A stretch of DNA of 64,000 bases. Source: an uncultured Bdellovibrionales bacterium. GTDB taxonomy: Bacteria; Patescibacteriota; Minisyncoccia; Moranbacterales; UBA2206. The position numbers and the translations under genes are program-made. The stretch spans positions 77,255 through 141,254 of the forward strand of contig CAZIFD010000002.1 in the NCBI GenBank assembly GCA_964538685.1, read 5' to 3'. A model generated the notes under the pieces. The model searched no databases and was not told where the DNA came from. It saw only the letters and a list, made by a program, of their open reading frames with translations. Each line of letters starts with the position of its first letter. The stretch's first letter is position 1. This document shows positions 3,277 to 22,703 of this stretch, one piece after another.

Positions 3277-5136
3277 GTGCAAAAAAAAGGAGGGACATTT
3301 TTTTGTTTGTGTAAAAAAAGATTTTACTTGATAACAGTCTTTTTCTTTTGGTGTCTTTTTACTTCTTCAACACTTGGGCAAGAACCTACCCTTAGAATTA
3401 ATGAGGTTTATCCTTATCCCGACTCCGGAGAAGAAGAGTTTGTAGAAATTAAAAATTTTGGAACTACCGAAATCAATCTTAGAGATTGGACCATCAAAGA
3501 TGCCGGGAACCACAAATATAAAATAACTGAAGATATTTTTCTCGGTCCGGATTCGGTTGTATTTTTCAGAAGAAATTTTTATCTCAACAATACCGGAACT
3601 GAATCCGTTTTTCTGGTTGACCCAAGTGGCGAAGAAAAAGATGGGGTTCTTTTTGAAAATGCCAGAAAAGGCTTTTCTTGGAACTTGTTTAGCTCTGGTT
3701 GGAACTGGAATTCTCCCAGTCCGGGAGAAGAAAATCCAGAAGAAGAAGAAGAAGAAGAAGAAGAAGAAGAAGACGCTGTTTATTCTTCTCAAATCAGAAT
3801 CAATGAAATATTGCCAAATCCCGAGAAAGACGAAAATAAAAATGAATACATAGAACTTCATAATTATTCTCAAGAAACAATCAGTCTTGCCAGTTGGATT
3901 ATCAAAGATTCTTCAAAAAATGGAACTTATATTTTCCCGGAAGAAACTCGCATTGATCCAGGAGAATTTTTAGCAATCTACCGAACCGATTTTAATTTCG
4001 CTTTAAACAATTCAGATGAATCGGTTTTTCTTTTTAATCCCAAAAATGAATTGGTTTCCGAAATTTCTTTTAAATCTTCCGCTCCGGAAAATGCTTCTTA
4101 CAATTTTTTAGATGAAAAATCTTGGTTTTGGAGCGGTTTTTTGACTCCCGGGGAAGAAAATCAATTTGAAGATTTCCCCGAATATTCAATTAGTCTTCCA
4201 AAAAATGTTTTTCAAAAAATCTATGCTGAATTTGGAGTAGAAAGCGAAAATAAGACTTTGAAATTCACCTGGGATTTTGGTGATGGGAAAAAATCATCCC
4301 AACAAGAAGTTCGCCATAAATACGAAAAAACTGGGGACTACAAATTAAAACTAAAAATAAAAACGCCAACTCAAGAAAAAGAGGAAGTTTTTCTTCTTGA
4401 AGTTTCCAAATTTAAAAACAAAGACATAGAGATGATAGCCATTCTCCCCAACCCAAAAGGCACTGATTCAAAAAACGAATGGATTGAAATCAAAAATAAT
4501 GGAAAGAAAAAAATTAATCTCAAAAATTGGTACATCGCCACCGGCAGTGAAAAATTGATCAATCATCCCATTCAAGAAGATTTTTCCATTAAACCAGGAA
4601 AAACCAAACGACTCTTTCAAGAAGTTTGTGCCTTTTCTCTGGGAAACCAAGAAGGAAAAATAGAATTAAGGTATCCCGATGGTGAAACGGCCGAGAATGT
4701 GGAATATGAAAAAGAGAAAATTGAGGAAGAAGAAGTTTACCAAAAAACCAAGTCTGGTTGGCAATGGAAAAAAATCTCAGCCGACATCAAACCATCCACC
4801 GAAACAACTAAGGAAAACATCAAAAAAGAAACTGAACAAGAAACTGAAGAAATTGAAACAGAATCAAACAAAAGCAATCCTTTCCAAGATTTTTCTCAAT
4901 TTTGGGGAATGTCTTCCCGGGAAGAAGAAACAAAAGAATCTAAAAAAGAAAAATACTTTCAACTTTTAACCAAAAAAAATCTCAACACCAAAAACATAGC
5001 TTTCTTTCAAAAAAATCCTCCTTTGTTAAAAATTAAAAATATTTATTTATTCAATCATCCCAATAAACAAATTCATTGGTTAAAAATCTTTCGTCAAAAG
5101 ACCAATCTTTTTGCCAGAAAATTATTTTCTGTTTGA
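3277..5136 (+). CDS. Secreted lamin-tail-domain (LTD) protein with PKD-like domain and poly-Glu linker
   Basis: Signal peptide. Three LTD-like modules (INEVYPYPDSGEEEFVEIKN; INEILPNPEKDENKNEYIELHN; IAILPNPKGTDSKNEWIEIKNNG). PKD-like WDFGDG motif. E12 tract encoded by (GAA)12. Lys-rich low-complexity tail. Confidence 0.6.
   Translation: MQKKGGTFFCLCKKRFYLITVFFFWCLFTSSTLGQEPTLRINEVYPYPDSGEEEFVEIKNFGTTEINLRDWTIKDAGNHKYKITEDIFLGPDSVVFFRRNFYLNNTGTESVFLVDPSGEEKDGVLFENARKGFSWNLFSSGWNWNSPSPGEENPEEEEEEEEEEEDAVYSSQIRINEILPNPEKDENKNEYIELHNYSQETISLASWIIKDSSKNGTYIFPEETRIDPGEFLAIYRTDFNFALNNSDESVFLFNPKNELVSEISFKSSAPENASYNFLDEKSWFWSGFLTPGEENQFEDFPEYSISLPKNVFQKIYAEFGVESENKTLKFTWDFGDGKKSSQQEVRHKYEKTGDYKLKLKIKTPTQEKEEVFLLEVSKFKNKDIEMIAILPNPKGTDSKNEWIEIKNNGKKKINLKNWYIATGSEKLINHPIQEDFSIKPGKTKRLFQEVCAFSLGNQEGKIELRYPDGETAENVEYEKEKIEEEEVYQKTKSGWQWKKISADIKPSTETTKENIKKETEQETEEIETESNKSNPFQDFSQFWGMSSREEETKESKKEKYFQLLTKKNLNTKNIAFFQKNPPLLKIKNIYLFNHPNKQIHWLKIFRQKTNLFARKLFSV
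3736..3771 (+). repeat. (GAA)12 trinucleotide microsatellite inside the LTD gene
   Basis: Perfect GAA x12 encoding poly-Glu. Confidence 0.9.
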
Positions 5137-6575: not shown

Positions 6576-7232
6576 ATGGAGATAAGCCTAAGTCCTGTCA
6601 TTAAATTTTTCCTTTTTCAAGGAGTTCCTTTTGATACGGTAATGTTAATTTTGGTTTTACCTATCATCGCCACTTTCATTTCTTTTTTGCGACAAGTTGT
6701 CGGAATCAAAGCTTTTGGACTCTATACTCCTCTCATTATCACTTTTGCCTTTTTGGCTACCAATGGGGTTAAATACGGAATCGCCATTTTCATCTCTGTT
6801 ATTCTTACCGGAATGTTGATGAGATTTGTCCTAAAACCTTTTCGTTTACTTTACCTCCCAAGAGTAGCTATTACGGTTACTATTGTAGCCTTGGTTATTC
6901 TTGGAATTTTGGCTTTTGGAGGATCAATGAGAAGAACTGGCTTGGCAGCCGTTTCTATTTTTCCTATCTTAATTATGATTACCCTAACAGAAAAATTTGT
7001 CACTGTTCAAATTGAAAAAGGCAACAAAACTGCCATAATTTTAGCCTTTGAAACTATGTTAATTTCAATCATCGGCTACTACATCGCCAGTTCAAGCGCT
7101 TTTATTATGTTTTTAGCCAGATACCCCTGGACAGTGCTTCTCACCATTCCTCTTAATATTATTTTTGGCAAATGGACAGGACTTCGCATCAAGGAATATT
7201 TTAGATTCAAGGAAATTATCAAAAAAATGTAA
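6576..7232 (+). CDS. Polytopic (about 6-7 TM) membrane protein, first gene of the ATP-grasp operon. It may correspond to the 7TM module that partners RimK-like ligases.
   Basis: 218 aa, alternating hydrophobic helices. Immediately upstream of, and co-oriented with, three ATP-grasp genes. Confidence 0.45.
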   Translation: MEISLSPVIKFFLFQGVPFDTVMLILVLPIIATFISFLRQVVGIKAFGLYTPLIITFAFLATNGVKYGIAIFISVILTGMLMRFVLKPFRLLYLPRVAITVTIVALVILGILAFGGSMRRTGLAAVSIFPILIMITLTEKFVTVQIEKGNKTAIILAFETMLISIIGYYIASSSAFIMFLARYPWTVLLTIPLNIIFGKWTGLRIKEYFRFKEIIKKM

Positions 7233-7244
7233 CTTCTATAAACT

Positions 7245-8651
7245 ATGTTTGATTTTTTTAGAAAAGGCCAGAAAATATTGGGAATGAATTCCAGAAATTT
7301 GGAGTTTATTCGGCCTTATAATCGCAAAAAGGCAAAACGATTAGCTGACGACAAATTGCTTAGCAAAAAAATTCTTACCAAACACAACTTAGCAGTTCCA
7401 AAACTAATTGCTAAAATAAGAACTGCTCAAGAATTGGATGATTTTAATTGGGAAAATTTGCCGGAAAGCTTTGCCTTGAAACCCAGTAGAGGATTTGGTG
7501 GTGAAGGAATTTTGGTTGTTTATGGAAAAAGAAAGGGTCATACTGATGAGTGGGTAAAAGCTGATCGTTCTTATGTTACTACTTCCGATCTTAAAACTCA
7601 TATAAGAAACATTTTAGATGGGTCATATTCGCTTTCCAATACTCCCGACACGGCTTTTTTTGAAGAAAGATTAACCTTGCTTAAACTTTTTAAACCCTAT
7701 TCTTTCAAAGGTATTCCCGATATCAGAGTAATCATTTACAATAAAGTACCGGTAATGGCAATGCTTCGTCTTCCCACCAAAGAATCGGGTGGTAAAGCCA
7801 ATCTCCAACAGGGTGCTATTGGTGTAGGTATTGATTTGGCTACCGGCACCACCACTACGGCTGTTCAGGGAAAATCCAAAATCATTGAGTATGTTCCGGA
7901 AACTCGCCTTCTTCTTTCAGGAATTAAAATTCCCTATTGGAAAGATATTTTATTTCTTGCTTCAAAAGCTCAAGAAATTTCCAAGTTGGGTTTTTTGGGA
8001 GCCGATATCGCTATTGATAAAGAAAGGGGTCCCGTGATTCTTGAACTTAATGCTCGCCCAGGACTTTCTATTCAAGTTGCTAACTTGTCCGGACTCAAAG
8101 AAAGATTACATCGCGTCAAGGGTCTAAAAATCAAAACCCTTGAAAGAGGGGTGCGAGTCGGCATGGATCTTTTTGGAGGAGAAATTGAAGAAGAACTGGA
8201 AGAAATTTCCGGAAAAAAAGTGATTGGAATAACAGAAAAAATTAAATTAATTGGCAAAAACGGCAAGGAGATTGAACTAGATGCCAAGATTGATACGGGC
8301 GCTTTTTCATCATCCATAGATACTGAGTTAGCAAAAGAATTAGGTTTTGAAAATGTAATAGATTTTTTCAATTCAATAAATTTGCCCTGTGGATTCACCC
8401 GAGAAGAAGCGCGAACAGTTGAAGATGATTTGCGAAAAAAATATTTAAATCAATGCCCGGACTTGGCAGATATTGTGATTATTTATTCCTCTCATGGCGT
8501 TTCCATCAGACCAAAAATATGGATAGAATTTATCCTAGATAATATATCTATCAGAACTCAGGTTAATATTGTAGAAAGATCAGGCTTAAAAAAAAGCATG
8601 TTGATTGGAAAGAAAAATTTAGGAAAATTTTTAATTGATGTAAATAAATGA
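7245..8651 (+). CDS. ATP-grasp amidoligase (alpha-L-glutamate-ligase-related, RimK-like N-terminal region) fused to C-terminal retropepsin-like aspartic peptidase domain
   Basis: N-terminus LGMNSRNLEFIRPYNRKKAKRLADDKLLSKKIL. ATP-grasp motifs KPSRGFGGEGILVV and ILELNARPGL. C-terminal AKIDTGAFSSSID has the DTGA aspartic-protease signature. Stop overlaps the next start (ATGA). Confidence 0.65.
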   Translation: MFDFFRKGQKILGMNSRNLEFIRPYNRKKAKRLADDKLLSKKILTKHNLAVPKLIAKIRTAQELDDFNWENLPESFALKPSRGFGGEGILVVYGKRKGHTDEWVKADRSYVTTSDLKTHIRNILDGSYSLSNTPDTAFFEERLTLLKLFKPYSFKGIPDIRVIIYNKVPVMAMLRLPTKESGGKANLQQGAIGVGIDLATGTTTTAVQGKSKIIEYVPETRLLLSGIKIPYWKDILFLASKAQEISKLGFLGADIAIDKERGPVILELNARPGLSIQVANLSGLKERLHRVKGLKIKTLERGVRVGMDLFGGEIEEELEEISGKKVIGITEKIKLIGKNGKEIELDAKIDTGAFSSSIDTELAKELGFENVIDFFNSINLPCGFTREEARTVEDDLRKKYLNQCPDLADIVIIYSSHGVSIRPKIWIEFILDNISIRTQVNIVERSGLKKSMLIGKKNLGKFLIDVNK

Positions 8652-9559
8652 AAACCGTATTGACCCTTTATAAGCAAAATTTTTCCAGCGATATGCTTCA
8701 GAGATCCGAAGATCTCTATTCATTTCTCGGAAAAAATGGAATCACTCTTTGCCGAGGATTAATTTCCGATTTTAACGAAAAAACAGGAGTTTTCAAAAAA
8801 GCTATCTTTTTTGAAAATAAACGATGGGTATGGAAGAAAAATGTAAAGCCTGATTTGATATATGACCGTTCTATTTTAAATGTTCCACCAAAACAATACC
8901 AAAAAAGAATTATCCTTGAAAAAACTTATCCCTTTTTTAATAATTTAAAAATCAAAAACTTGTTGACCAATAAATGGTTAACCTATTTAAAGTTTAAAAA
9001 GTATTGCCCAAAAACAATCCTAGTTGAAAAAAGAGCGGATCTAAAAAAAATATCTTCTTTAAGTTCCAAAACAATCATTGTAAAGCCTCTCTTTGGCGCA
9101 AAAGGAATTGGAATAAAAGTATTGGCAAAAAAAGATTTTACTCCCATAAAATATCCCTTCATTGTTCAAGAGTTTATTGATTCTTCTTCTGGAATTAAGG
9201 GACTTGTTAATGGAATACACGATCTTAGGATTATGGTAAAAAACAACAAGCCATTTCATTTCTTTCTTCGTATTCCATCTAAAAACAGCCTTGTCGCAAA
9301 TCTAAGCCAAGGAGGAAAAATAAAATTATTAAATGAAAAGGATATTCCATCAAATGTCATGCTTATGGCAAAAGAAATAATAAATGTCATAAAACCATTA
9401 AGCACCAAAAATCTATATTCCATAGATCTTCTTTTGGATAAAAATGGAACTCCGTGGATAATAGAATTAAATGCTCAACCGGGAATTGTCCTAGAAAAAG
9501 AAGAATTGAAAAACAAACAATTTTACTATAAAAATATTATTGATTTATTTTTAAATTAA
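8648..9559 (+). CDS. ATP-grasp ligase, RimK-like
   Basis: IIVKPLFGAKGIGIKVL, DLRIMV, WIIELNAQPGI ATP-grasp signature blocks. Confidence 0.6.
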   Translation: MKTVLTLYKQNFSSDMLQRSEDLYSFLGKNGITLCRGLISDFNEKTGVFKKAIFFENKRWVWKKNVKPDLIYDRSILNVPPKQYQKRIILEKTYPFFNNLKIKNLLTNKWLTYLKFKKYCPKTILVEKRADLKKISSLSSKTIIVKPLFGAKGIGIKVLAKKDFTPIKYPFIVQEFIDSSSGIKGLVNGIHDLRIMVKNNKPFHFFLRIPSKNSLVANLSQGGKIKLLNEKDIPSNVMLMAKEIINVIKPLSTKNLYSIDLLLDKNGTPWIIELNAQPGIVLEKEELKNKQFYYKNIIDLFLN

Positions 9560-9564
9560 ACTTT

Positions 9565-10491
9565 ATGAAAATTTGCGTTATAAGTGCTTCAAAAAATTTT
9601 TATGCTCCCAAAAAACTTCTTGAAGAAGGAAAAAAAGCAGGACATGATGTTTATTTGACAACCTGGGAAGATATTATTATTGACATACAAAAAGAAAATA
9701 TTTACTTTGGTGATAAAAAAAATTCTCTTGATAAATTTGATGCTATCATACCCAGAAGCGATCGCTATTCCATAAAACTTAGCAATAAAAAAATTGTAAA
9801 TAGACATTTGGACAGTCTTTTTAGGTTATTAATTGAATACTCAAAAAAACATGGCGTTTTTTTCTTAAATGGAGATTATTTTTCAAGATATCAAAGCTTA
9901 GACAAGCTTTCTCAACAATATTTTTTTGCAGAAAACGGACTACCAGGAATAGAAACCTTTTTTTTCACAAACCCCTCCAAATTAATTTGTCAAAAAGATA
10001 TAATAAAATATCCACTAGTTGCTAAAACTTCCCAGGGAAGCAGAGGTTTGAGTGTGTTTAAACTAAAAAATATTTCGGAATTAGAAAATTTTTTGGATAA
10101 AAGAGCTGTTGATGGACAATTGTTTCTTTTTCAAAAATATCACACCATAAAACATGATTTTAGAATATTAGTAGTAGGCAAAAAAGTCTTAGGGATAATG
10201 AAAAGATCATCCAATGGAACAGAGTGGAAAACGAACATTTCACTTGGAGGATCAGGAGAAAGATACCCTAAAAACAAAAAAATGGAAGTCTTAGCCCTCT
10301 CAGTTGCCTCAAAGATGAAGTTTGATTATTTGGGTTTGGATTTATTGGAAGACGAACAAGGAAATTTTCGCATAATTGAAACTAACTCTCTGCCACAGTT
10401 TAGAGGATTTGAAAAAGCTTTTCCCGAAATTAATGTCGCCAAAGAACTTATACAGCTAGTTGAAATAAAAAAACAAAAATTTTTGATTTAA
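9565..10491 (+). CDS. rimK: RimK-family ATP-grasp ligase (alpha-L-glutamate ligase-like)
   Basis: MKICVIS...YAPKKLLEEGKKAGHDV RimK N-terminus; PLVAKTSQGSRGLSVF; FRILVVGKKVLGIMKRSS; IIETNSLPQFRGFE. Confidence 0.65.
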   Translation: MKICVISASKNFYAPKKLLEEGKKAGHDVYLTTWEDIIIDIQKENIYFGDKKNSLDKFDAIIPRSDRYSIKLSNKKIVNRHLDSLFRLLIEYSKKHGVFFLNGDYFSRYQSLDKLSQQYFFAENGLPGIETFFFTNPSKLICQKDIIKYPLVAKTSQGSRGLSVFKLKNISELENFLDKRAVDGQLFLFQKYHTIKHDFRILVVGKKVLGIMKRSSNGTEWKTNISLGGSGERYPKNKKMEVLALSVASKMKFDYLGLDLLEDEQGNFRIIETNSLPQFRGFEKAFPEINVAKELIQLVEIKKQKFLI

Positions 10492-10561
10492 AATAAGTTT
10501 AACTTTTTATTTATTGATTGATAACACTATCCAATTGATAATAAACTAAAAATAAGCTAAA

Positions 10562-10594
10562 ATTAGAGCTACTTATAAGTAGCTCTAATTTTTT
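10562..10594 (+). terminator. Strong Rho-independent terminator after the ATP-grasp operon
   Basis: Perfect palindrome ATTAGAGCTACTT-AT-AAGTAGCTCTAAT followed by TTTTTT. The T-run abuts the ATG of the next gene. Confidence 0.7.
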
Positions 10595-13126
10595 ATGAAA
10601 AAGATTTTTTCACCTAATAAAACAAACTCTTCAGAAAGATTAAGTGATTTTTTTTCTCGCTTTTCCTGGAAAAAAACCGGAAAAATTATCGGAATATTTT
10701 TTGGTGTTTGCTTTCTTTTTATTTTGGGAGTTTTTGCTTATTTTGCCAAAGATCTTCCTAGCGCCAGCGGAATAGTGGATAGAAATGTCGCCGAATCCAC
10801 CAAGATTTACGACCGAACCGGAACACATCTTCTTTATGATATTCACGGGGAAGAAAAAAGAACAGTCATTCCATTCTCAGAAATGCCAGACACCATCAAA
10901 TACGCCACCATTGCCTTGGAAGATCAAGATTTTTATAATCATCATGGAATTAAAATAACTTCCATTATTAGAGCCGCTCTCAAGGATATTTTGCACCGGA
11001 GAGCCTCTCAAGGAGGATCAACCATTACTCAACAATTTGTCAAAAATTCTCTTTTAACCAGGGAAAAAACTTTCACCCGAAAAATAAAAGAACTGATTCT
11101 TTCCCTTGAAATGGAACAAAAATTTAATAAAGACGAGATTTTGGCAATGTATCTTAATGAAATTCCCTACGGTTCCAATGCTTATGGAATTGAAGCTGCT
11201 GCTCAAACATTTTTTGGAAAACATGCTAAAGAATTGTCTCTGGATGAAGCCACTCTTCTGGCATCCCTGCCTCAAGCGCCAACATATTATTCTCCTTTCG
11301 GTTCTCATCCGGAAGCCCTGAAAGCCAGACAAGAATACGCCTTAAAAAAATTATTTGATCTGAATTACATTAGCGAAGAACAATACAATGAAGCCAAAAA
11401 TATTGATGTTTTAGCTAAAATCAGTCCCTACAAAGAAAATATTAGCGCTCCTCATTTTGTCATGTATGTTAAAGAATATCTGGAACAAAAATACGGACAA
11501 GAAGCCTTGGAACAGGGGGGATTAAAAGTTTATACCACTCTTGATTGGGACAAACAACAAGTAGCAGAAAAATTTGTCAAAGAAGGAGCGGAAAAAAATA
11601 TTCAAAGCTATAATGCTGAAAACGCCGCCTTGGTCGCCATTAATCCAAAAAATGGTCAGATTTTATCTATGATTGGATCCAAGGATTATTTTGACAAAGA
11701 AATTGACGGGCAAGTCAATGTCGCCATTCGTGATCGCCAACCAGGATCCTCTTTTAAACCATTTGTTTATTTAACCGCCTTTACCAAAGGATATACTCCT
11801 GAAACTCAACTTTGGGATGTGGACACTGATTTTGAAACTGATGATGGACAAGAATATAATCCAAAAAACTATGATGACAAAAATAGAGGACTCCTCAAGA
11901 TGAAAGAGGCCTTAGCGATGTCACTTAATGTTCCGGCGGTCAAAACCCTCTATCTGGCCAGCGTTAAAGATTCAATTAGCCTAGCTAAAAAACTTGGCAT
12001 CACCACCCTCAACAATCCCGAGCGTTATGGCCTCTCTTTAGTGCTTGGAGGCGGAGAAGTTAAACTTTTGGATCACACCAATGCTTTTGCCACCCTGGCT
12101 AATGGAGGAATTAAACACGAAAAAACCGCTATTCTAAAAGTAGAAAATGGAAAAGGGGAAATTTTAGAGGAATTTAAAGACTCTGAAGGAGAAAGAGTGG
12201 TAGAAGAAAAATTTGTCGCTATGTTGGATTATATTCTCTCTACCAATGAGCTCCGGGCCCCGGTTTTTGGGGAAAACAACAAGCTAGCCTTCAAAGATCG
12301 TCAAGTAGCCGCTAAAACAGGAACTACAAATGAATGGCGTGATGGTTGGACAATGGGCTACACACCATCAATCGCCGTCGGAGTTTGGGCAGGAAACAAT
12401 GACAACACCAAAATGGCCGATGGCGCCGATGGATCCTATGTGGCTGCTCCTATTTGGAGAGCCTTTATGGATGAAGTTCTTAAAAACTCCAATCCGGAAA
12501 CTTTTCCAAAATATGATAAAGACGAAGATGCTCCGGAAAAAGATATTTTGAAAGGTGAATTAAATCCAACAGAAGAATTAAAAGTTTGTGAAATTCCCGG
12601 AAAAGATGATGAATATTGCCTGGTTAGCGACGCCTGCCCGGACAAAGAATCAAAGAAAAAGAAATTCTTTACTGGCCACACTATCCTTTATTATGTTAAT
12701 AAAGACGATCCCCAAGGAGACACACCCAAAAATCCAGAGGATGATCCCCAATTTAAAAACTGGGAAAAAGCGGTAAAAAAATGGGCCAAAGAAGAAAAAG
12801 ATTATGAAACTGACGAAGCTCCGGAAGATAAATGTCAAGAAGATGATTTTAAAAAATATTTGCCGGAAGTTAAAATTGAATCCCCTTCTTCTGATAATGT
12901 TGGATCATCTTTCAATATCAAAGTCTCAGCTAATGCCGGTTATGGAGTGAAAAAACTTTCCATTTCAATTAATGGCAACGAAATAGAATCAACGGGAGAT
13001 TCTTCTTTAAGTAAAACTTATGACGCTTCAGATAATAATGGATCCACCCTCACCATCAAAGCGTCTGTTGAGGATAAAAATGGCCACAGCGATTCTGTTT
13101 CCAAGGAAATTAAAGTTAGTTTCTAA
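10595..13126 (+). CDS. Class A penicillin-binding protein (PBP1A: transglycosylase plus transpeptidase) with C-terminal Ig-like extension
   Basis: GT51 motifs IALEDQDFYNHHGI and GGSTITQQ. Transpeptidase SSFKP (SxxK) and KTGTT. N-terminal TM anchor. Confidence 0.9.
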   Translation: MKKIFSPNKTNSSERLSDFFSRFSWKKTGKIIGIFFGVCFLFILGVFAYFAKDLPSASGIVDRNVAESTKIYDRTGTHLLYDIHGEEKRTVIPFSEMPDTIKYATIALEDQDFYNHHGIKITSIIRAALKDILHRRASQGGSTITQQFVKNSLLTREKTFTRKIKELILSLEMEQKFNKDEILAMYLNEIPYGSNAYGIEAAAQTFFGKHAKELSLDEATLLASLPQAPTYYSPFGSHPEALKARQEYALKKLFDLNYISEEQYNEAKNIDVLAKISPYKENISAPHFVMYVKEYLEQKYGQEALEQGGLKVYTTLDWDKQQVAEKFVKEGAEKNIQSYNAENAALVAINPKNGQILSMIGSKDYFDKEIDGQVNVAIRDRQPGSSFKPFVYLTAFTKGYTPETQLWDVDTDFETDDGQEYNPKNYDDKNRGLLKMKEALAMSLNVPAVKTLYLASVKDSISLAKKLGITTLNNPERYGLSLVLGGGEVKLLDHTNAFATLANGGIKHEKTAILKVENGKGEILEEFKDSEGERVVEEKFVAMLDYILSTNELRAPVFGENNKLAFKDRQVAAKTGTTNEWRDGWTMGYTPSIAVGVWAGNNDNTKMADGADGSYVAAPIWRAFMDEVLKNSNPETFPKYDKDEDAPEKDILKGELNPTEELKVCEIPGKDDEYCLVSDACPDKESKKKKFFTGHTILYYVNKDDPQGDTPKNPEDDPQFKNWEKAVKKWAKEEKDYETDEAPEDKCQEDDFKKYLPEVKIESPSSDNVGSSFNIKVSANAGYGVKKLSISINGNEIESTGDSSLSKTYDASDNNGSTLTIKASVEDKNGHSDSVSKEIKVSF

Positions 13127-13172: not shown

Positions 13173-13457
13173 TTATTTGGTTTTTATTCCTTTTACCAAA
13201 TTTCCCCCCAACTCCTGATTTATTTTTTTTATAATCCTTTCCCGATTAATCCAAAGCTCCGAAAGCCAAACCGAACTTTCCGACCGGACAAAAAAAATTT
13301 TTCCGTCAAAATAGTCTGGAATTAATTTTTCTTGACCCATCTTGCCCATTTCATTTCCAATTATCTTTTTAAAAACAAAAAAGGCGGTTTTTTCATCTAA
13401 AAAAACTTTCTTATTTTGCGCCTCTTTTTTTTTAATCAAATCTCCCAGCGATTTCAT
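13173..13457 (-). CDS. DUF721/DciA-like small protein downstream of dnaN
   Basis: 94 aa. Sits at a position commonly occupied by DUF721 family genes next to dnaN. Weak motif resemblance only. Confidence 0.35.
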   Translation of the reverse strand: MKSLGDLIKKKEAQNKKVFLDEKTAFFVFKKIIGNEMGKMGQEKLIPDYFDGKIFFVRSESSVWLSELWINRERIIKKINQELGGNLVKGIKTK

Positions 13458-13480: not shown

Positions 13481-14638
13481 TTAGTTTTTTATTGGCATCA
13501 CTATATAAGTGTAATTTTCCAAAACTTCACCGGTTTTTTCATCAATCTCCTTAAGTGCCACCGGGGTAGAATCGTTATTCATTAAAATTGCTACCTGAGA
13601 AGTAGTAATCGTATTAATACCATCCAATAAATATTTATAATTAAAAATCACTTCTTGGGATGGCCCTGAAACATCCAATTTAACTTCTGAGCTGTTTTCT
13701 CCCGCTTCCGCACTTTTTACCATTACTAATAATTGAGCCTTTTCTGCGTCAATTTTAAGACTAATTTCATTCGCCTTACTAGTTGTAAAAACACTGGCCA
13801 TTTTTACCAAACTTTGCAATTGATTTTTTTCCAAAACAACTCTGGTTTGATATTCACTAGGCATTATGTGCTTATATTCCGGATATTTACCATTAATCAA
13901 CCGAGACACCAACACACACTCTCCAATTTCAAAAAATATTTGACCTTCTTCAATGGCAATTTTAATTTCTTCATCTGTTTCCGGATTAATAATTCTTGAC
14001 AATTCAATTAAAGTGCTGGCGGGGACTATTAAATTATCTCTTTTTTGTCGAAATAAATCATATAATTCCTGATTAATATTTTCTTTTTCTAAAATAAGCC
14101 TTTCTTCTGTTAAACGAAAACTGTCTGTAGCTGCAAAAAATAACTCTTTAGCACCTAAAACTAAATTAATTCCGGTTAATTCTTGTCTTATTTCCCCCAA
14201 TGAAACACTTATTATTACTCTATTTATAATATTTTTAAGAATATTGGCTGGTAAATTTAAAATAAAATCGGTATTTTTTTGAGGAATTAGAGGAAATTCA
14301 TCTGCCAATAATCCCTTTATAGTTGCTTTATAATTTCCACTTTTTATTTTTAAATTTTGATCATTCGTTTCTAATTCAATTTTCTCACCTCGGGGAAGAT
14401 TATTTATAAAATTACTGATAATTTTAGCTGGGATAGTTATTTTTCCCTCTTTTTCCGTTATTACTCCTATTTTTGTATTAATCCCTATTTCCAAATTAGT
14501 AGCGGAAAGTTTTAGGGTATTTTTTTTACTTTCTAATAATATATTATTTAAAATAGGTAAGGTGTTTTGTTTAGAGACTAATCTCTCTGTTTTAAAAATA
14601 GCTTTCCTAAAATTATCTTGAGTACAAATTAATTTCAT
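13481..14638 (-). CDS. dnaN: DNA polymerase III beta sliding clamp
   Basis: MKLICTQDNFRKAI...LPILNNILLE N-terminus; 385 aa; directly downstream of dnaA. Confidence 0.9.
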   Translation of the reverse strand: MKLICTQDNFRKAIFKTERLVSKQNTLPILNNILLESKKNTLKLSATNLEIGINTKIGVITEKEGKITIPAKIISNFINNLPRGEKIELETNDQNLKIKSGNYKATIKGLLADEFPLIPQKNTDFILNLPANILKNIINRVIISVSLGEIRQELTGINLVLGAKELFFAATDSFRLTEERLILEKENINQELYDLFRQKRDNLIVPASTLIELSRIINPETDEEIKIAIEEGQIFFEIGECVLVSRLINGKYPEYKHIMPSEYQTRVVLEKNQLQSLVKMASVFTTSKANEISLKIDAEKAQLLVMVKSAEAGENSSEVKLDVSGPSQEVIFNYKYLLDGINTITTSQVAILMNNDSTPVALKEIDEKTGEVLENYTYIVMPIKN

Positions 14639-14913: not shown

Positions 14914-16308
14914 TTAAATCAAAGAATAGAGTTGTTCTTTGATGTGTTCCAATTCTTCAGAGAGTTTTTCATCATATTCAAGAAGTTTGGATATTTTTTC
15001 ATAAGCATGAAGAGCAGTGGTGTGATCTCTTCCTCCAAGTTTATCTCCTATTCCGGGATAAGAGTATTGAAGCTCGGTTCTCATTAAAAACATCGCGATT
15101 TGTCTGGGTTTAGCAATTTCTCTTTTGCGATTTTTAATTAAAAGATCGTTTAAACTAACTTCATAAAAATCGCAAACAGCTTTTAGGATATGTTTATGAT
15201 TAACTCCTTTCTTTTTTCCACTAGAAATAAGCTCAGAAAGTAAAGATGAGACATAGTTATAGGTAAGCGCTTTATTGCTTAATTGAGAGGAAACAATCAC
15301 TCTATTAAGCGCCCCTTCTAATTCTCTAATGTTGTTGGAAATATTTTTAGCAATGAAGGCTATAGCTTCATCTTCAATGTTTACTCCTTCATCTTGGATT
15401 TTTTTTCTTAAAATAGCTAAGCGAGTTTCAAAATCAGGTTTAGAAACATCAGCAATCATTCCTCCTTCAAAACGAGAACGCAATCTTTCTTCAAGGGTGG
15501 GAATGGCTTTGGGTGCTCGATCGCTACTTAAAACAATTTGTTTATTTAATTGGTAAAGATAATTAAAAATGTGAAAAAATTCTTCCTGCGTTTTTTCTTT
15601 CCCAGAAAGAAATTGAACATCATCAATAATAAGAAGATCTATTTTGCGATAATATTCCTTAAAATCATTAATTTTTTGATTTCTTATGGAATCAATTAGA
15701 TCATTGGTAAATCTTTCGGAAGTAATATATTTTACTTGGCTCTCGGGGTTATTTTTTATAATTTCATTCCCGATTGATTGAAGAAGATGGGTTTTTCCCA
15801 GTCCCACCCCGCCATAAATAAAAAGCGGATTATAAGCCTTTCCTAGGTTTTTAGAGACAGCATAGCAAGCAGCCCTAGCCAATTCATTGCTTCCGCCAAT
15901 TACAAAATTATCAAAAACATATTTAGGGTTGAGATTGCTCTCATAATGAATTTGGTTTTTGGTTTTTGGTGGTTGAGAATTATTGCTGGCTATAGATTTG
16001 TTTGGAATATTTGAATTGGGTGAGATTATAGCATCAACTGAATGTTCTCGGGATTGATTTTGAGGAACCGAGATCACACAAGAAACGGTTTGAATTGAAT
16101 TTTCAATATTTTTTAGGGCTTTTAGAATGTAGGGACGGTATTTGTTTTCCAACCATTCCTTGGCAAATCCATTAGGAACTCCAATAATAATATGACCATC
16201 CTTAATGGAACTAATAAAAGTATTTTTAAACCAAGTGATAAAATTGGCTCTAGATATGGAGAGTTCTATTTCGGCCAAAGCCGCTTTCCAAAGTTCATTG
16301 GTATTCAT
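14914..16308 (-). CDS. dnaA: Chromosomal replication initiator DnaA
   Basis: AAA+ NPLFIYGGVGLGKTHLLQSIGNE. C-terminal DNA-binding domain. Likely start at the MNTNELW ATG (16308); the ORF track extends to 16350. Confidence 0.95.
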   Translation of the reverse strand: MNTNELWKAALAEIELSISRANFITWFKNTFISSIKDGHIIIGVPNGFAKEWLENKYRPYILKALKNIENSIQTVSCVISVPQNQSREHSVDAIISPNSNIPNKSIASNNSQPPKTKNQIHYESNLNPKYVFDNFVIGGSNELARAACYAVSKNLGKAYNPLFIYGGVGLGKTHLLQSIGNEIIKNNPESQVKYITSERFTNDLIDSIRNQKINDFKEYYRKIDLLIIDDVQFLSGKEKTQEEFFHIFNYLYQLNKQIVLSSDRAPKAIPTLEERLRSRFEGGMIADVSKPDFETRLAILRKKIQDEGVNIEDEAIAFIAKNISNNIRELEGALNRVIVSSQLSNKALTYNYVSSLLSELISSGKKKGVNHKHILKAVCDFYEVSLNDLLIKNRKREIAKPRQIAMFLMRTELQYSYPGIGDKLGGRDHTTALHAYEKISKLLEYDEKLSEELEHIKEQLYSLI

Positions 16309-16550
16309 AATTTTAAGATCCCCCCCAAAATTGTTTTTGAAGTATAACACAGGGAAAAACAGGAGTCTAAGTTAAAAGTGGATAATACTGTTAATAAACT
16401 GTTTACTTCTTATAATTAAGATATAATATAAAATCTAGAAAAAGTAAATCTTTTCTGGCATTTTCAAATGATTAATTGACTTTATGCGGGTTAGCTGTTA
16501 AAATTTTGTTAGTAAATTAAGGGAAAAATCATTAAATTAACTGTAAAAAT

Positions 16551-18361: not shown

Positions 18362-19783
18362 ATGGCGGTTGCCAGAAAAATAGCTTACAATGTGGTTTTT
18401 AGCAGTGTTTCCAAAGTGCTGTCAACTGTTTTAGCTTTGGTTTCAATTGGATTTATCACCCGTTATTTAGGGAAAGAAGGCTTTGGAAATTATGCCACTG
18501 TTTTAGCTTTCTTGTCGTTTTTTTCAGCTATTTTGGATTTGGGTCTTTACTCTATTTCCACTCGGGAAATTTCTCGTCCCGGAGCTGAGGAGGAAAAAAT
18601 AATGAGTAGTATTTTTTCTTTGCGTCTTTTGTCATCCTTGATTGTTCTTGTTTTAGCCCCATTGGTTATTTGGTTTCTTCCTTATCCGGAAGAGGTCAAG
18701 AAAGGAATTTTTATTGTGGGACTATCTTTTGTTTTTTCTTCCGGATATCAAGTATTAAACGGAGTTTTTCAAAAGAATTTAGCAATGGACAGAGTGGCTT
18801 TTTCTGAGCTTTTGGGAAAAATTGTCCAAGTAGGATTGGTTGTGATGGCAGTCAAGCTGAATTTAGGATTTGATTGGATTATTGCTTCTTTGCTTCTGAA
18901 TATGATCATAAGCTTCTTTTTGGTTTATTTTTGGTCAAAAAAATTTATTCGTCTCAAGTTGAGTTTTGATTTTGAATACTGGAAAGTTTTTTTGAAAAAT
19001 TCTTTTCCAATGGGAATAGCGGCTCTTATTTCTTTTATTTATTTTAAAATAGATACCATCTTGCTTTCCTTGTTGAGGGATAGTTCGGAAGTAGGAATTT
19101 ATAATGTTGCTTACAAAGTTATTGAAAATATAACTTTTTTCCCGACGATGATTATTGGCTTGATTCTTCCTATTATGTCGGGTAATATTTTTCACAACAA
19201 AGAAAGATTTCAAGAAATTTCCGACAAAACATTTAAAGTTTTTGTGATCTTAGTAGTTCCCTTGATTATTATTACTCTTTTTCTGGCGGATGGCATAGTA
19301 GGCGTTATTAGTGGTTCGGGATTTTCTGAATCAGTCGGGGTGTTAAAGGTTTTGGTTTTCGCCTTGGCTTTTATTTTTTTTGGTAATTTTTTCAATACAA
19401 TTATGATTTCAGCTAATTTTCAAAAAAAATTAATGTGGATTATGGGAATAGCTGCTATTTTTAATGTTTTTTTAAATCTTTTGCTTATCCCCCGCTTTTC
19501 CTATTTGGGCGCTGCTTGGGTTTCTGTTCTAACGGAATTTATTGTGGTTTTTTTGGGATTTATTTTTGTAAAAAGAAAACTTGGTTATTTTCCCAGAATT
19601 GAAAAAATCGGCGGTATTGTTTTTTCTGCGGTGATCATGAGTGTTTTTTTGGCCTTTTTCCAAGGCGTAGGTTTTATTGGTTTATTGTTAGGCGGTTCTT
19701 TGGTTTACGGTTTTTCTCTTTTGGTGTTTAGAGTGGTGACTATGGAAGAAATAAGAAGCATAATAAGCAAAAAAAGTGAATAA
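18362..19783 (+). CDS. Polysaccharide/O-unit flippase (MOP/Wzx superfamily)
   Basis: 473 aa, about 12-14 TM, polysaccharide-biosynthesis-protein-like architecture. Followed by glycosyltransferases. Confidence 0.65.
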   Translation: MAVARKIAYNVVFSSVSKVLSTVLALVSIGFITRYLGKEGFGNYATVLAFLSFFSAILDLGLYSISTREISRPGAEEEKIMSSIFSLRLLSSLIVLVLAPLVIWFLPYPEEVKKGIFIVGLSFVFSSGYQVLNGVFQKNLAMDRVAFSELLGKIVQVGLVVMAVKLNLGFDWIIASLLLNMIISFFLVYFWSKKFIRLKLSFDFEYWKVFLKNSFPMGIAALISFIYFKIDTILLSLLRDSSEVGIYNVAYKVIENITFFPTMIIGLILPIMSGNIFHNKERFQEISDKTFKVFVILVVPLIIITLFLADGIVGVISGSGFSESVGVLKVLVFALAFIFFGNFFNTIMISANFQKKLMWIMGIAAIFNVFLNLLLIPRFSYLGAAWVSVLTEFIVVFLGFIFVKRKLGYFPRIEKIGGIVFSAVIMSVFLAFFQGVGFIGLLLGGSLVYGFSLLVFRVVTMEEIRSIISKKSE

Positions 19784-20651
19784 AAAAACAAAAAAATTTC
19801 CCAAAGTATTCATATTGGTGCTTAATTATAACGGTGAGTCGGTAATAAAAAATTGTCTTTCCAGCGTTTTTAAGATTGATTATCCCAATTATGAAGTTGT
19901 TGTTGTTGATAATAATTCTACAGATGGTTCTTTGGAATTGGCTAAGACTAATTTTTCCAAAGCTTATTTTATCAAAAATGATCGCAATCTCGGTTTTTCG
20001 GCTGGAAATAATGTTGGTATTCGTTTTTCCTTGGAAAGAATGGCGGATTATGTATTACTTCTTAATAATGACACAGAAGTAGAAAAAGATTTTTTAACTC
20101 GTCTGGTTCAAGCGGGAGAAGCTGATTCTGGAGCCGGAATATTGAGCCCTGTGATATTTGAAGGCAAAAGTCGTAATATTTGGTTTTCCGGAGGGCGAAT
20201 AGATTGGCTTAGAATGAAAACTTTACATGAAAAAGATGTCAAAAACCAAGAAGTTTATGAGACCGAATTTATAACCGGTTGTTCTATGCTAATAAAAGCC
20301 CGAGTTTTTCAAAAAATTGGACTTTTAGATGAAGATTTTTTTCTTTATTGGGAAGATGCCGATTTTAGCTTTCGTTCTCAAAAAGCTGGATTTAAAAATT
20401 TAATAGTTTCTTCCAGCTGGGTTTATCACTTTGAAAAAAGTTGTCAGGATAAAATAAAAAAGACTTACTGGTTGGTTCTTTCCGGTTTGATGTTTTTTCA
20501 AAAAAACGCCTCTTGGAAAATGCGCTTTTGGCTCAATATTTATTTGAGATTAAGGAAGATCAAAAATAAAACTGATTTGAAAAAAGTTGACAATCAACTC
20601 TCTCAATCAGTTAAAAAGGCCTATGATGACTTCCAAAAAATCAAAATTTAA
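19776..20651 (+). CDS. Family 2 glycosyltransferase
   Basis: VLNYNGESVIKNCLSSV...VVVVDNNSTDGS...LLLNNDTEV. Confidence 0.8.
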   Translation: MNKKTKKFPKVFILVLNYNGESVIKNCLSSVFKIDYPNYEVVVVDNNSTDGSLELAKTNFSKAYFIKNDRNLGFSAGNNVGIRFSLERMADYVLLLNNDTEVEKDFLTRLVQAGEADSGAGILSPVIFEGKSRNIWFSGGRIDWLRMKTLHEKDVKNQEVYETEFITGCSMLIKARVFQKIGLLDEDFFLYWEDADFSFRSQKAGFKNLIVSSSWVYHFEKSCQDKIKKTYWLVLSGLMFFQKNASWKMRFWLNIYLRLRKIKNKTDLKKVDNQLSQSVKKAYDDFQKIKI

Positions 20652-21435
20652 AAAACTTTCCATTGTTATCGTGAATTATCAAAGTCGGCATCATTTGGAA
20701 AAATGCTTGTTTTCGGTTCGGAAAAAAATTTTTACCAAAATCAAATCAGAAGTAATTTTAATCAATAATGATTCCAGAGAAAATTTGGAAGAATTTGTAA
20801 AAAATTTCCCCGGATTGAAATTGGTGGAAAATTGGGAAAACAAGGGGTTGTCCGCTAGTTGGAACTTGGGAAGAAAATTTTCTGAGGGAGAAATAATTTG
20901 TTTTCTTAATCCGGATACGGAAATTCTTTCAGAAAATATTGAAAAATTACTTCAAGAATTTGAAAAAAATAATGAATTGGGAATTTTGGGTCCGAGGTTA
21001 ATTGATAAAAATGGCCAAACTCAGTCTTGGAGTGCAGGCAGAAGGGTTAGTTTGATGGATGTTATCTTGAATAATTTAGGTTTTCTCAGAAGTCGGAAAA
21101 TCTGGAAAAGTTCTCAAAAAAGAGAGGTTGATTGGGTGAGCGGAGCCGCTTTTTTCATTAGAAAGAGTTGGTTTGATTTGCTTGGGGGTTTTGATGAAAA
21201 TTTTTTCCTTTATTTTGAAGATGTTGATTTTTGCCAAAGAATGGCTGATAATAGAAAAAAAATCATTTATTTCCCCTGTTTTGAAGTGGGACATTGGTGT
21301 GGAGGAAGCCACAGCAATGCTAAGAAACAAAAAGAAAATTATTATCAATCACAAGATTATTTTTTTCAAAAGCATAGAGGAACTTTTGAATCAAGAGTAT
21401 TGAAAATTTTGCGAAAAATAGTTCTAAAAAAATAA
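20623..21435 (+). CDS. Family 2 glycosyltransferase (second copy)
   Basis: LSIVIVNYQSRHHLEKCL...ILINNDS...FLNPDTE. Start placed at the internal MMTSKK; the ORF track starts at 20587. Confidence 0.75.
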   Translation: MMTSKKSKFKKLSIVIVNYQSRHHLEKCLFSVRKKIFTKIKSEVILINNDSRENLEEFVKNFPGLKLVENWENKGLSASWNLGRKFSEGEIICFLNPDTEILSENIEKLLQEFEKNNELGILGPRLIDKNGQTQSWSAGRRVSLMDVILNNLGFLRSRKIWKSSQKREVDWVSGAAFFIRKSWFDLLGGFDENFFLYFEDVDFCQRMADNRKKIIYFPCFEVGHWCGGSHSNAKKQKENYYQSQDYFFQKHRGTFESRVLKILRKIVLKK

Positions 21436-21440
21436 TTCAA

Positions 21441-22703
21441 ATGTTTCAAATATTGGTTTTGTTGGCCTTTCTATTGCCTTTTCAGGTAGCGCTTAATCCG
21501 GTTTCGGGCGTGGATTTGGCATCTTCTCGGTTAGTTGTCGTTTTGCTTTTTCTTTTTTGGATGCTAAAAAGCCTCAAAGAGAAAAAAATTATAATTTCCG
21601 GAGGAATTTTATCCGGTTTTTTATTATCTTTTTTGGGTTTAGTTTTCCTTTCCCTTTTTGAGGCGCAAAATATGGCTTGGGGAGTGAGAAAATTAGCTTT
21701 CTTGTTTTCTGTTTTTCCGATTTTTTGGGTGGCTGGAGCCGAAATAAAAAAAACCGAAGAAATAATCAAAACAGCTAAGGCTTTTGTTTGGGGAAGTTTC
21801 GCGGTAGCTATACTGGGAATAGGACAGTTTTTTGCTCAATTTGTTTTTGGCCTGGAAAAAGTATATTTTTTTTGGGCCAAAAATTTAGCACCACTTTTTT
21901 TGGGAAATGCTTTTTCTGAGGCAGTTCTCAAAAATCCCAGTTGGCTGGTTAATGTTTCCGGAAAAACATTGCTTCGGGCTACTGGAACTTTTCCTGATCC
22001 GCATATGCTGGCCTTTTTTCTTAATTTAGCCATTTTTACTTGTTTGGGCTTGTTGTTTTCTCAAAGAAAAAGAAAAGTCCTTTATATTTTTATTTTTTTT
22101 GTTTTAATTATTGCTAATTTGCTTACTTTTTCTCGCGGAGGCTATTTGGGAATGGTGGTGGCTTTTGCGGTTTTGTTAGGAATATTTTGGAATAAAATAA
22201 AAAAAAGTTATCGCTGGTCAATTTTGGGGTTGGGATTGATTTTTATTTCAGGATTGTTATTGTGGACTCCGGTAGCGCAACGATTTGCCTCCTCATTTGA
22301 TTTTTCCGAAGGATCTAATATAGGAAGGCTTGGAATTTGGAAAGAGGCCTTAGGGGTCATTTCTGAGCATCCTTGGGGGGTTGGAATTGGCAATTATTCT
22401 TTAGCAGTCAAACCATTAGCTGATTATCGTGATCCTATTTACGCTCACAATGCTTATTTGGATATTGTGGCTGAAAGCGGAATCCCGGCTGGTTTTTTTT
22501 GGATCGCTTTTTTGGTGTTTGCTTTTTGGAAGTTTAAGAAAAAAACACAAAAGGAACCGTTTTTTTTGGGAATTTCTTTGGCAATAGTCGCTTTTTCCGT
22601 TCATTCTTTGGTGGAAACGCCTATTTATTCTCCGGTGGTTATGATAGCTTTTTTGCTTCTGGTTTCTTTTTTGAAAAATGAAAAAAATGAAAAAAATACT
22701 TAA
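21441..22703 (+). CDS. O-antigen ligase/polymerase-like (Wzy_C family) membrane protein
   Basis: Polytopic. FSRGGYLGMVVAFAVLL motif region is typical of the O-antigen ligase family. Confidence 0.6.
   Translation: MFQILVLLAFLLPFQVALNPVSGVDLASSRLVVVLLFLFWMLKSLKEKKIIISGGILSGFLLSFLGLVFLSLFEAQNMAWGVRKLAFLFSVFPIFWVAGAEIKKTEEIIKTAKAFVWGSFAVAILGIGQFFAQFVFGLEKVYFFWAKNLAPLFLGNAFSEAVLKNPSWLVNVSGKTLLRATGTFPDPHMLAFFLNLAIFTCLGLLFSQRKRKVLYIFIFFVLIIANLLTFSRGGYLGMVVAFAVLLGIFWNKIKKSYRWSILGLGLIFISGLLLWTPVAQRFASSFDFSEGSNIGRLGIWKEALGVISEHPWGVGIGNYSLAVKPLADYRDPIYAHNAYLDIVAESGIPAGFFWIAFLVFAFWKFKKKTQKEPFFLGISLAIVAFSVHSLVETPIYSPVVMIAFLLLVSFLKNEKNEKNT

Follow-up and report, generated by a model that had tools for sequence, protein, structure and literature searches.

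A predicted Rlo/Rim-type peptide ligase and retropepsin module, with a seven-transmembrane partner and a variable ligase cassette, in Patescibacteria

The closest described relatives of the locus considered here are the rloABC genes and the RimK/RimB pair. The rloABC genes of Pseudomonas aeruginosa and Pseudomonas fluorescens constitute an envelope-stress system (Lormand et al., mBio 2025; PMC12239564), in which the RloA proteins are secreted retropepsins that cut runs of at least eight glutamates. Loss of all three rloA genes results in hypo-osmotic lethality together with defects in cell shape, beta-lactam tolerance and biofilm formation, and in P. aeruginosa the triple mutant is rescued by deletion of either rloB, which encodes a seven-transmembrane (7TM) protein that contains an inactive transglutaminase domain, or rloC, which encodes an ATP-grasp ligase (PMC12239564). 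From this rescue it follows that ligase and 7TM protein act in the same pathway as the protease, upstream of it. RimB is a cytoplasmic poly-Glu-specific protease that binds and controls RimK, the cytoplasmic alpha-L-glutamate ligase of the system that poly-glutamylates ribosomal protein S6 (PMC7343187); the N-terminal signal peptide and a conserved disulfide set RloA apart from it (PMC12239564). RloB was reported to be 96% proteobacterial in distribution (PMC12239564). Here we describe four genes, g1 to g4, in a 64-kb stretch of Patescibacteria DNA (the window; all coordinates are positions in it) that encode a 7TM protein and three ATP-grasp ligases, the first of which is fused to a retropepsin. 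An earlier sequence-only reading of the window had singled out these genes and had described the proteobacterial trio as being of unknown function, which no longer holds since the trio was named rloABC in 2025 and has been partly characterised (PMC12239564).

The locus is probably a Patescibacteria (Moranbacteria-type) Rlo/Rim module that makes and trims an anionic non-ribosomal peptide in association with the membrane, a reading that we hold with moderate confidence and that supports the membrane-associated peptide tagging or poly-amino-acid synthesis and processing system first proposed. Like rloABC, it brings together in one operon an ATP-grasp ligase that is probably RloC-type, the 7TM module of RloB and an RloA-type DTGA retropepsin, and the best solved relatives of its protease are the RloA crystal structures, with the basic residues that bind poly-Glu conserved. 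Unlike in rloABC, the protease is the C-terminal domain of the ligase instead of a secreted protein and has neither a signal peptide nor the conserved disulfide cysteines, g1 lacks the periplasmic inactive-transglutaminase domain of RloB, the flap region is a structured helical insert, and one to four extra, fast-diverging ligases are found downstream in loci of the Candidate Phyla Radiation (CPR), to which the Patescibacteria host belongs. With the RimK/RimB (rimABK) system it shares a cytoplasmic ATP-grasp ligase with a cytoplasmic retropepsin, and a RimK-family protein with the RimK N-domain (g4), while the fusion in g2 makes a RimK-RimB-type physical partnership permanent. It differs from RimK/RimB in that g4 is not a RimK equivalog, that the ligase fused to the protease is probably of the RloC family and has no pre-ATP-grasp domain, that the 7TM partner is obligatory in the CPR loci, that RimA is missing and that there is no evidence for S6 as the target. 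The window locus is Rlo-type by its components and Rim-like in the location of its protease. No description of the CPR fusion, of an RloB protein without transglutaminase domain or of the variable ligase cassette was found in the literature.

All four genes lie on the plus strand, tightly packed between positions 6576 and 10491 (Table 1), and their open reading frames (ORFs) match those of the sequence-only reading exactly. A 12-nt gap separates g1 from g2, g2 and g3 share an ATGA overlap at 8648-8651, and 5 nt, not the 6 nt given at first, lie between the stop of g3 (9559) and the ATG of g4 (9565). From the geometry of these junctions g1 to g4 are translationally coupled. The opposite strand carries just short ORFs nested within these genes, and none of the defence-system models of PADLOC matches any of the four proteins at E <= 0.01.

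The N-terminal part of g2 matches PF14397, ATPgrasp_ST, with 235 bits (cut-off 31.4; aa 17-292) and TIGR02291, 'alpha-L-glutamate ligase-like', with 286.5 bits (E 2e-85; aa 9-293, covering 282 of 317 positions). TIGR02291 is presumably the RloC family, and judged by these profiles the ligase domain is probably RloC-type. Homologues of g2 number in the thousands, at 60-77% identity; all matches with a named source are from Moranbacteria, Pacebacteria, Parcubacteria or the Patescibacteria group, and their public annotations read 'alpha-L-glutamate ligase-like' or 'sugar-transfer associated ATP-grasp'. Residue 26 of g2 aligns to position 91 of MptN, and the ligase has no pre-ATP-grasp N-domain. 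Direct reading shows that the KP..G..G and E-x-N motifs (E-L-N in g2) are kept in all three ligases of the operon. The full-length AlphaFold2 model of g2 has a predicted local distance difference test score (pLDDT) of 82 and consists of two domains joined by a low-confidence linker; compared with the PDB by Foldseek it gave ATP-grasp proteins only, the best being ArgX/LysX, RimK and cyanophycin synthetase (CphA1). The structural neighbours found with this model all extend the C-terminus of a peptide or a protein. A PDB sequence search with the ligase domain returned nothing at E <= 0.01.

The C-terminal part of g2 matches PF05618 with 29.8 bits (cut-off 27) and the RloA1-3 models weakly, which together with the ligase profiles bears out that a TIGR02291-like ATP-grasp and a DTGA peptidase are joined in one chain. 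In an alignment of 49 homologues D350-T-G-A353, R422, P423 and R445 are invariant and K348 is nearly so. A profile of the domain finds in the PDB first 9g58 (E 1e-7) and 9g59 (1.8e-6), then 2pma (1.4e-3) and Ddi1; 9G58 and 9G59 are the crystal structures from the RloA study (PMC12239564). The fold of this region became visible only once the domain was modelled separately (pLDDT 84.7), and Foldseek then placed 9g58 (RloA) on top (3.8e-5), followed by 2pma, 9g59 (RloA2), the retroviral-protease-like domains of Ddi1 and HIV protease, in agreement with the proposal that the DTGA region folds as a retropepsin. K348-x-D350, R422-P423 and R445 align with the K-x-DTGA, RP and (D/E)RS positions of 9g58 and 9g59. 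By spacing, from which the assignment to P. aeruginosa RloA numbering is inferred, they match K46-x-D48, R114 and R137 of RloA, the two arginines being 23 residues apart in both proteins. In RloA poly-Glu is coordinated by K46, R114 and R137, which the protease needs for its activity both in vitro and in vivo (PMC12239564), and the alignment indicates that these poly-Glu-binding basic residues are conserved in g2. The cysteines of the window domain (Cys383 and Cys403) are not conserved, and the conserved cysteine pair of RloA is lacking. Nor is there a signal peptide, the domain being internal to the chain (aa 324-468) and the N-terminus of g2 not hydrophobic. In both respects the domain resembles the cytosolic RimB.

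Two further segments of g2 are conserved. The linker between the domains, F310-GGEIEEELEEISG-323, has F310, G311, G312, E313, E319, S322 and G323 invariant in 49 sequences, and the motif LFGGE[IV]EEE[IL]EE.[ST]G[KR] recurs across many fusions belonging to separate clusters at 50% identity. It is acidic, E-I-E-E-E-L-E-E, with a conserved regular hydrophobic spacing, and was modelled as a low-confidence helix (pLDDT below 50 at aa 314-323). The linker may serve as a hinge, as a pseudo-substrate or as the element to which the basic tail of g1 docks. Its use as a self-cleavage site of the RloA type is not supported, because RloA requires at least eight consecutive glutamates (PMC12239564) and the linker has hydrophobic residues interspersed, and self-cleavage is speculation only. 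At the other end of the protein, disorder is predicted for aa 1-26 (7245-7322; pLDDT about 42), although this segment is highly conserved, with N15, R17, R23, P24 and N26 invariant, which suggests a docking or regulatory peptide.

The 7TM identity proposed for the first gene stands, as g1 matches PF14402, 7TM_transglut, with 98.9 bits over profile positions 57-247 of 248. The NCBIfam model of RloB is matched at positions 312-507 of 508 only (72.8 bits against a cut-off of 900), and since the match is confined to the last 196 positions g1 is a 7TM module without the periplasmic inactive-transglutaminase domain; no transglutaminase-like ORF was found near g1 in the ORF list of the window. Its hydropathy shows about seven hydrophobic segments and a strongly basic C-terminal tail. 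Across 50 orthologues 72 residues are invariant, including the motif GKWTGLRxxEYxRF.

The comparison of loci covered 53 species-level genome loci and 80 metagenome loci, the latter at identities down to 49%. Across the 53 genome loci the gene order is conserved as YebC-RuvC-7TM-fusion-[variable]-PBP1A, the last being a class A penicillin-binding protein (PBP). Wherever the upstream sequence was long enough to tell, in 121 of 121 loci, the 7TM gene is the immediate upstream neighbour of the fusion gene and shares its strand. Median identity to the window proteins is 66.7% for the g2 fusion and 63.7% for the g1 7TM protein, against 62.7% for PBP1A, 61.9% for RuvC and 54.8% for YebC; the pair of g1 and g2 is more conserved than any of these three. 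The g3 and g4 families reach medians of only about 32%. These gene neighbourhoods were reportedly first described in the amidoligase paper of Iyer et al. from 2009. The small genome assumed in the sequence-only reading is supported by a relative whose complete genome is 1.05 Mb.

Between the fusion gene and PBP1A the related loci have 1-5 kb of variable sequence. The number of accessory ATP-grasp genes is one in 14 loci, two in 22, three in seven and four in two, drawn in changing combinations from at least four families: the g3 family (C0), the RimK-like g4 family (C1), a family resembling the G-domain of cyanophycin synthetase (C2) and another RimK-like family. Thus the two extra ligases on which the first interpretation drew are present in the window but are not a fixed feature, being one state of a variable cassette; the exact four-gene layout of the window is repeated in locus L056. 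Family C2 (186 bits on TIGR02068, cyanophycin synthetase) occurs in about half of the related loci, whereas g4-type genes are absent from many, and the window proteins g1 to g4 score at most 22 bits on TIGR02068. One locus encodes a full CphA-like protein of 853 aa (688 bits against an equivalog cut-off of 850), and several have a stand-alone M-domain/Mur-ligase-like part of CphA. The other cassette genes encode MATCAP/QEGLA carboxypeptidases, YdjC deacetylases, family 4 glycosyltransferases (GT4), GNAT acetyltransferases and Mur-ligase-like proteins.

The two accessory ligases of the window had both been called RimK-like. This is correct for g4, which matches PF08443 (RimK, 90 bits) and PF18030 (Rimk_N, 38 bits) and reaches 138.5 bits on TIGR00768, rimK_fam, against a cut-off of 143.4; on the RimK equivalog PRK10446 (30S ribosomal protein S6--L-glutamate ligase) it scores 65.2 bits against a cut-off of 331 and is not an equivalog. 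For g3 it is only loosely so: this divergent ATP-grasp protein matches YheCD (55.7 bits), ATPgrasp_ST (47.3), RimK (31.6), GSH-S and, weakly, TTL. Its best-matching families are peptide-bond-forming ATP-grasp branches and not Ddl or carboxylases, and all three ligases of the operon fall among branches that act on peptides or protein C-termini, so that the assignment to unrelated families entertained earlier was not borne out. Just 91 homologues of g3 were detected among 5.8 billion proteins, the best at 50-53% identity and those with a named source all from CPR bacteria; in these searches g3 appears CPR-restricted and fast-evolving. The GC content of g3 and g4 is 0.29-0.30, compared with 0.38 for the ligase domain of g2.

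The profile of the retropepsin domain retrieved 1343 cluster representatives, many of them ATPgrasp_ST-retropepsin fusions of about 460-500 aa. Other organisms carry larger fusions, in which ATPgrasp_ST and retropepsin are followed by YdjC (688 aa), by MATCAP (PF08014; 800 and 916 aa) or by a second ATP-grasp (926 aa), as well as a retropepsin-ATP-grasp fusion. The YdjC, MATCAP and second ATP-grasp fusions tie the same types of gene that are found in the cassette to the pathway of the core pair. Several cassette proteins of relatives are unusual in themselves. In L021 (7416-9317) a 633-aa protein with two tandem g3-type ATP-grasp modules occupies the slot right after the fusion gene. The g4-type ligases of L003 (7417-9195), L008, L011 and L035 are 590-605 aa long, with a C-terminal extension of about 300 aa that matches DUF3541 weakly (E 3.6e-4). 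A protein in L009 (9288-11129) and family C5 (L026, L027, L031 and L138) have 606-632 aa and a GHEFTH (HExxH-like) motif, and none is matched by Pfam or NCBIfam; a novel metallopeptidase with a link to the system is one possibility.

In the proposed module the RloC-type domain of g2 would use ATP to add amino acids one at a time, most likely L-glutamate, to a carboxyl terminus and so build an acidic alpha-peptide. The retropepsin would dimerise like RloA and cut the acidic chain as RimB does for RimK, thereby setting the length of the chain or recycling it. With an ATP-using enzyme as its fusion partner and without a signal peptide, the protease is expected to cut in the cytoplasm. The part of g1 would be to tether the enzyme to the membrane and, in addition, to export the product or else to present an acceptor bound to the membrane. 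The accessory ligases g3 and g4 would be exchangeable and add further residues, and the composition of the product would then differ between species. The role of the module as a whole would be related to the envelope.

Several points weigh against this reading. The case for it is built on non-biochemical data, and the amino-acid specificity of the three ligases is not readable from their sequences. The 286.5 bits of g2 on TIGR02291 fall just short of the trusted cut-off, which is 314.2. Where RloA has its flexible or disordered flap, g2 has a confidently modelled helical insert of about 45 residues, so that access of the substrate may be different. The protease of Pseudomonas is periplasmic, and as not even the RloB of Pseudomonas has an assigned role, export by the 7TM protein is pure inference. 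The GT4, YdjC, GNAT and Mur-ligase-like genes of the relatives, finally, hint at a sugar or a cell-wall precursor as a possible acceptor in place of a free peptide.

The last point leads to an alternative that is unlikely, namely that the ligases decorate a glycan or cell-wall precursor, by placing residues onto an amino sugar, peptidoglycan or a lipid-linked intermediate at the membrane, with g1 presenting or flipping the carrier. PF14397 is named 'sugar-transfer associated', a YdjC deacetylase would free a sugar amine and is known in fusion with ATPgrasp_ST and retropepsin, and the relatives' cassettes hold the GT4, GNAT and Mur-ligase-like genes listed above, whereas the window operon itself has no glycosyltransferase, deacetylase or Mur-type gene. 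The cell-shape, beta-lactam and osmotic phenotypes of the Rlo mutants, for which a link to peptidoglycan is suspected by the authors (PMC12239564), would also be accommodated. An RloB homologue affects the production of membrane vesicles in Shewanella. A class A PBP gene is found downstream in 45 of the 53 genome loci, on the same strand in 43; on the other hand PBP1A belongs to a larger conserved block, YebC-RuvC...PBP1A-DciA-DnaN-DnaA, so that the adjacency may be mere inherited gene order, and a hairpin stands between g4 and the PBP gene. An endopeptidase that recognises at least eight glutamates moreover implies a long peptide instead of decoration with single residues.

A somewhat less probable explanation is a RimK/RimB-like cycle of protein tagging, in which one particular protein, S6 or another, would receive Glu-rich tails at its C-terminus from the ligases and the fused retropepsin would take them off again. 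This and the glycan alternative differ from the peptide module mostly in the acceptor. The RimK pre-ATP-grasp domain of g4, the protease being cytoplasmic like RimB, and the best structural neighbours RimK and ArgX/LysX, which act on protein C-termini, are all compatible with tagging, and so is the fusion or linkage in relatives of a MATCAP-type carboxypeptidase, the type that removes C-terminal residues from tubulin. The logic is analogous, though only that, to the TTL/TTLL-MATCAP cycle of eukaryotes, in which ATP-grasp ligases add and dedicated peptidases remove residues; MATCAP is fused to ATPgrasp_ST-retropepsin in relatives and g3 has weak TTL matches, but the window has neither a MATCAP gene nor a known protein target. 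The score of g4 on the RimK equivalog (65 against 331 bits) and the absence of g4-type genes from many loci argue against tagging, modification of a soluble protein needs no invariably linked 7TM protein, and rpsF lies outside the window, in which no ORF has a Glu-rich or acidic C-terminal tail.

It is quite improbable that the operon makes a polyamide kept in the cytoplasm as a store or osmolyte, either cyanophycin-like or poly-alpha-glutamate, which the retropepsin would depolymerise. A reservoir of poly-alpha-Glu as osmolyte was raised by the authors of the Rlo study (PMC12239564), and the stepwise ATP-dependent extension of a non-ribosomal peptide C-terminus is what the proposed module would have in common with CphA and other ATP-grasp polyamide synthetases. 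The C2 ligases, the 853-aa CphA-like protein and the stand-alone M-domain/Mur-ligase-like proteins put G-domain and M-domain genes of CphA type into the cassette position of related genomes. The cassette of the window (g3 and g4), however, has no CphA-like or Mur-ligase-like gene, the CphA-like protein of the relative is under the equivalog cut-off, the hydrolase is an aspartic retropepsin and not a serine cyanophycinase, and a purely cytoplasmic polymer leaves the invariable 7TM partner unexplained. Maturation of a ribosomal peptide of the graspetide type is effectively refuted: such clusters are reported from CPR bacteria and g4 weakly matches the maturase models, but with 23.2 bits against a cut-off of 350 and 14.2 against 475, none of the related loci has a leader-peptide-type gene, and the spacers of 56 nt upstream and 103 nt downstream of the window operon are too short for a precursor ORF, none of which had been seen in the sequence-only reading either.

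Table 1. Positions of the operon, its parts and neighbouring features in the window
Feature	Position	Strand	Description
g1	6576-7232	+	218 aa; 7TM protein
g2	7245-8651	+	468 aa; ATP-grasp ligase-retropepsin fusion
g2 ATP-grasp ligase domain	7293-8123	+	aa ~17-293; PF14397, TIGR02291
g2 conserved acidic linker	8172-8213	+	aa 310-323; FGGEIEEELEEISG
g2 retropepsin domain	8214-8648	+	aa 324-468
Catalytic DTGA	8292-8303	+	g2 aa 350-353
g3	8648-9559	+	303 aa; divergent ATP-grasp ligase
g4	9565-10491	+	308 aa; RimK-family ATP-grasp ligase
Palindromic hairpin	10559-10592	.	perfect 15-bp stem with flanking A/T runs; terminator-like element
Class A PBP gene (PBP1A)	10595-13126	+	downstream of g4 and the hairpin
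DciA-like	13173-13457	-	just downstream of the PBP1A gene
DnaN	13481-14638	-	downstream of the PBP1A gene
DnaA-like ORF	14914-16350	-	downstream of the PBP1A gene

The operon had been said to end at a strong terminator. A stable hairpin is indeed present 68 nt past the stop of g4 (dG -18.3 kcal/mol, z = -4.05; 0 of 200 shuffles folded equally well), ending 2 nt ahead of the start of PBP1A, with UUUUUAUG directly 3' of it. Its stem is AT-rich, with four GC pairs, and a consensus scan reported it on the minus strand only, which makes terminator activity plausible but not proven. In the 56-nt spacer between RuvC and g1 a TTGACC followed by a poor -10 element can be read directly, but the consensus scan gave nothing there and no promoter can be assigned. 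Downstream of PBP1A the DciA-like, DnaN and DnaA-like genes follow, in an order that is identical in L056, and the cumulative GC skew has its minimum at about 12-14 kb of the window and rises thereafter. Gene position and skew minimum together place the operon about 4-6 kb from the likely origin of replication. Past the origin region a run of co-directional ORFs (18362-23958, plus strand) has several hydrophobic, membrane-like N-termini. On the other side of the operon (3277-5136, plus strand) a 619-aa predicted surface protein contains an E11D run; in the near-identical contig L001 it has LTD and PKD domains and seven glutamates in the run, in L002 the run has at least nine, and homologues of other species have none. 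The run looks like a strain-variable GAA-type repeat. This protein was considered as a poly-Glu substrate and rejected, because the length of the run varies among near-identical strains and the run is missing in homologues.

It is tempting to speculate that the pair of 7TM protein and ligase-retropepsin is a near-essential machine of Moranbacteria-type CPR bacteria that makes a species-specific acidic non-ribosomal peptide at the membrane, encoded beside the gene of the main peptidoglycan synthase. A rapidly changing cassette, made up of trimming enzymes and of ATP-grasp, Mur-type and CphA-type ligases, would program the composition of the peptide, as a peptide analogue of O-antigen diversity, the retropepsin would set the chain length, and the acidic linker would be a built-in pseudo-substrate or self-processing site that echoes the maturation of retroviral polyproteins. 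Taken as a whole this scenario is a long shot. If it were true, the cytoplasmic layout would show where the product of Pseudomonas RloC is made and trimmed before it reaches RloB.

The Rlo system influences how Pseudomonas tolerates antibiotics, forms biofilms and shapes its cells, and the CPR variant provides independent evolutionary constraints on the products of RloC and RloB and on the target of RloA. Ligase and protease can function within a single cytoplasmic chain; the 7TM module by itself, lacking the transglutaminase-like domain, is the partner that cannot be dispensed with; and the pathway has repeatedly been joined to carboxypeptidases, deacetylases and cyanophycin-type ligases. The 468-aa fusion is, in addition, a compact and self-contained target for biochemistry. 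That the core pair is more conserved than genes of DNA repair and of the cell wall in genomes of about 1 Mb argues for its importance, and points to a function in CPR bacteria that is highly conserved and probably important.

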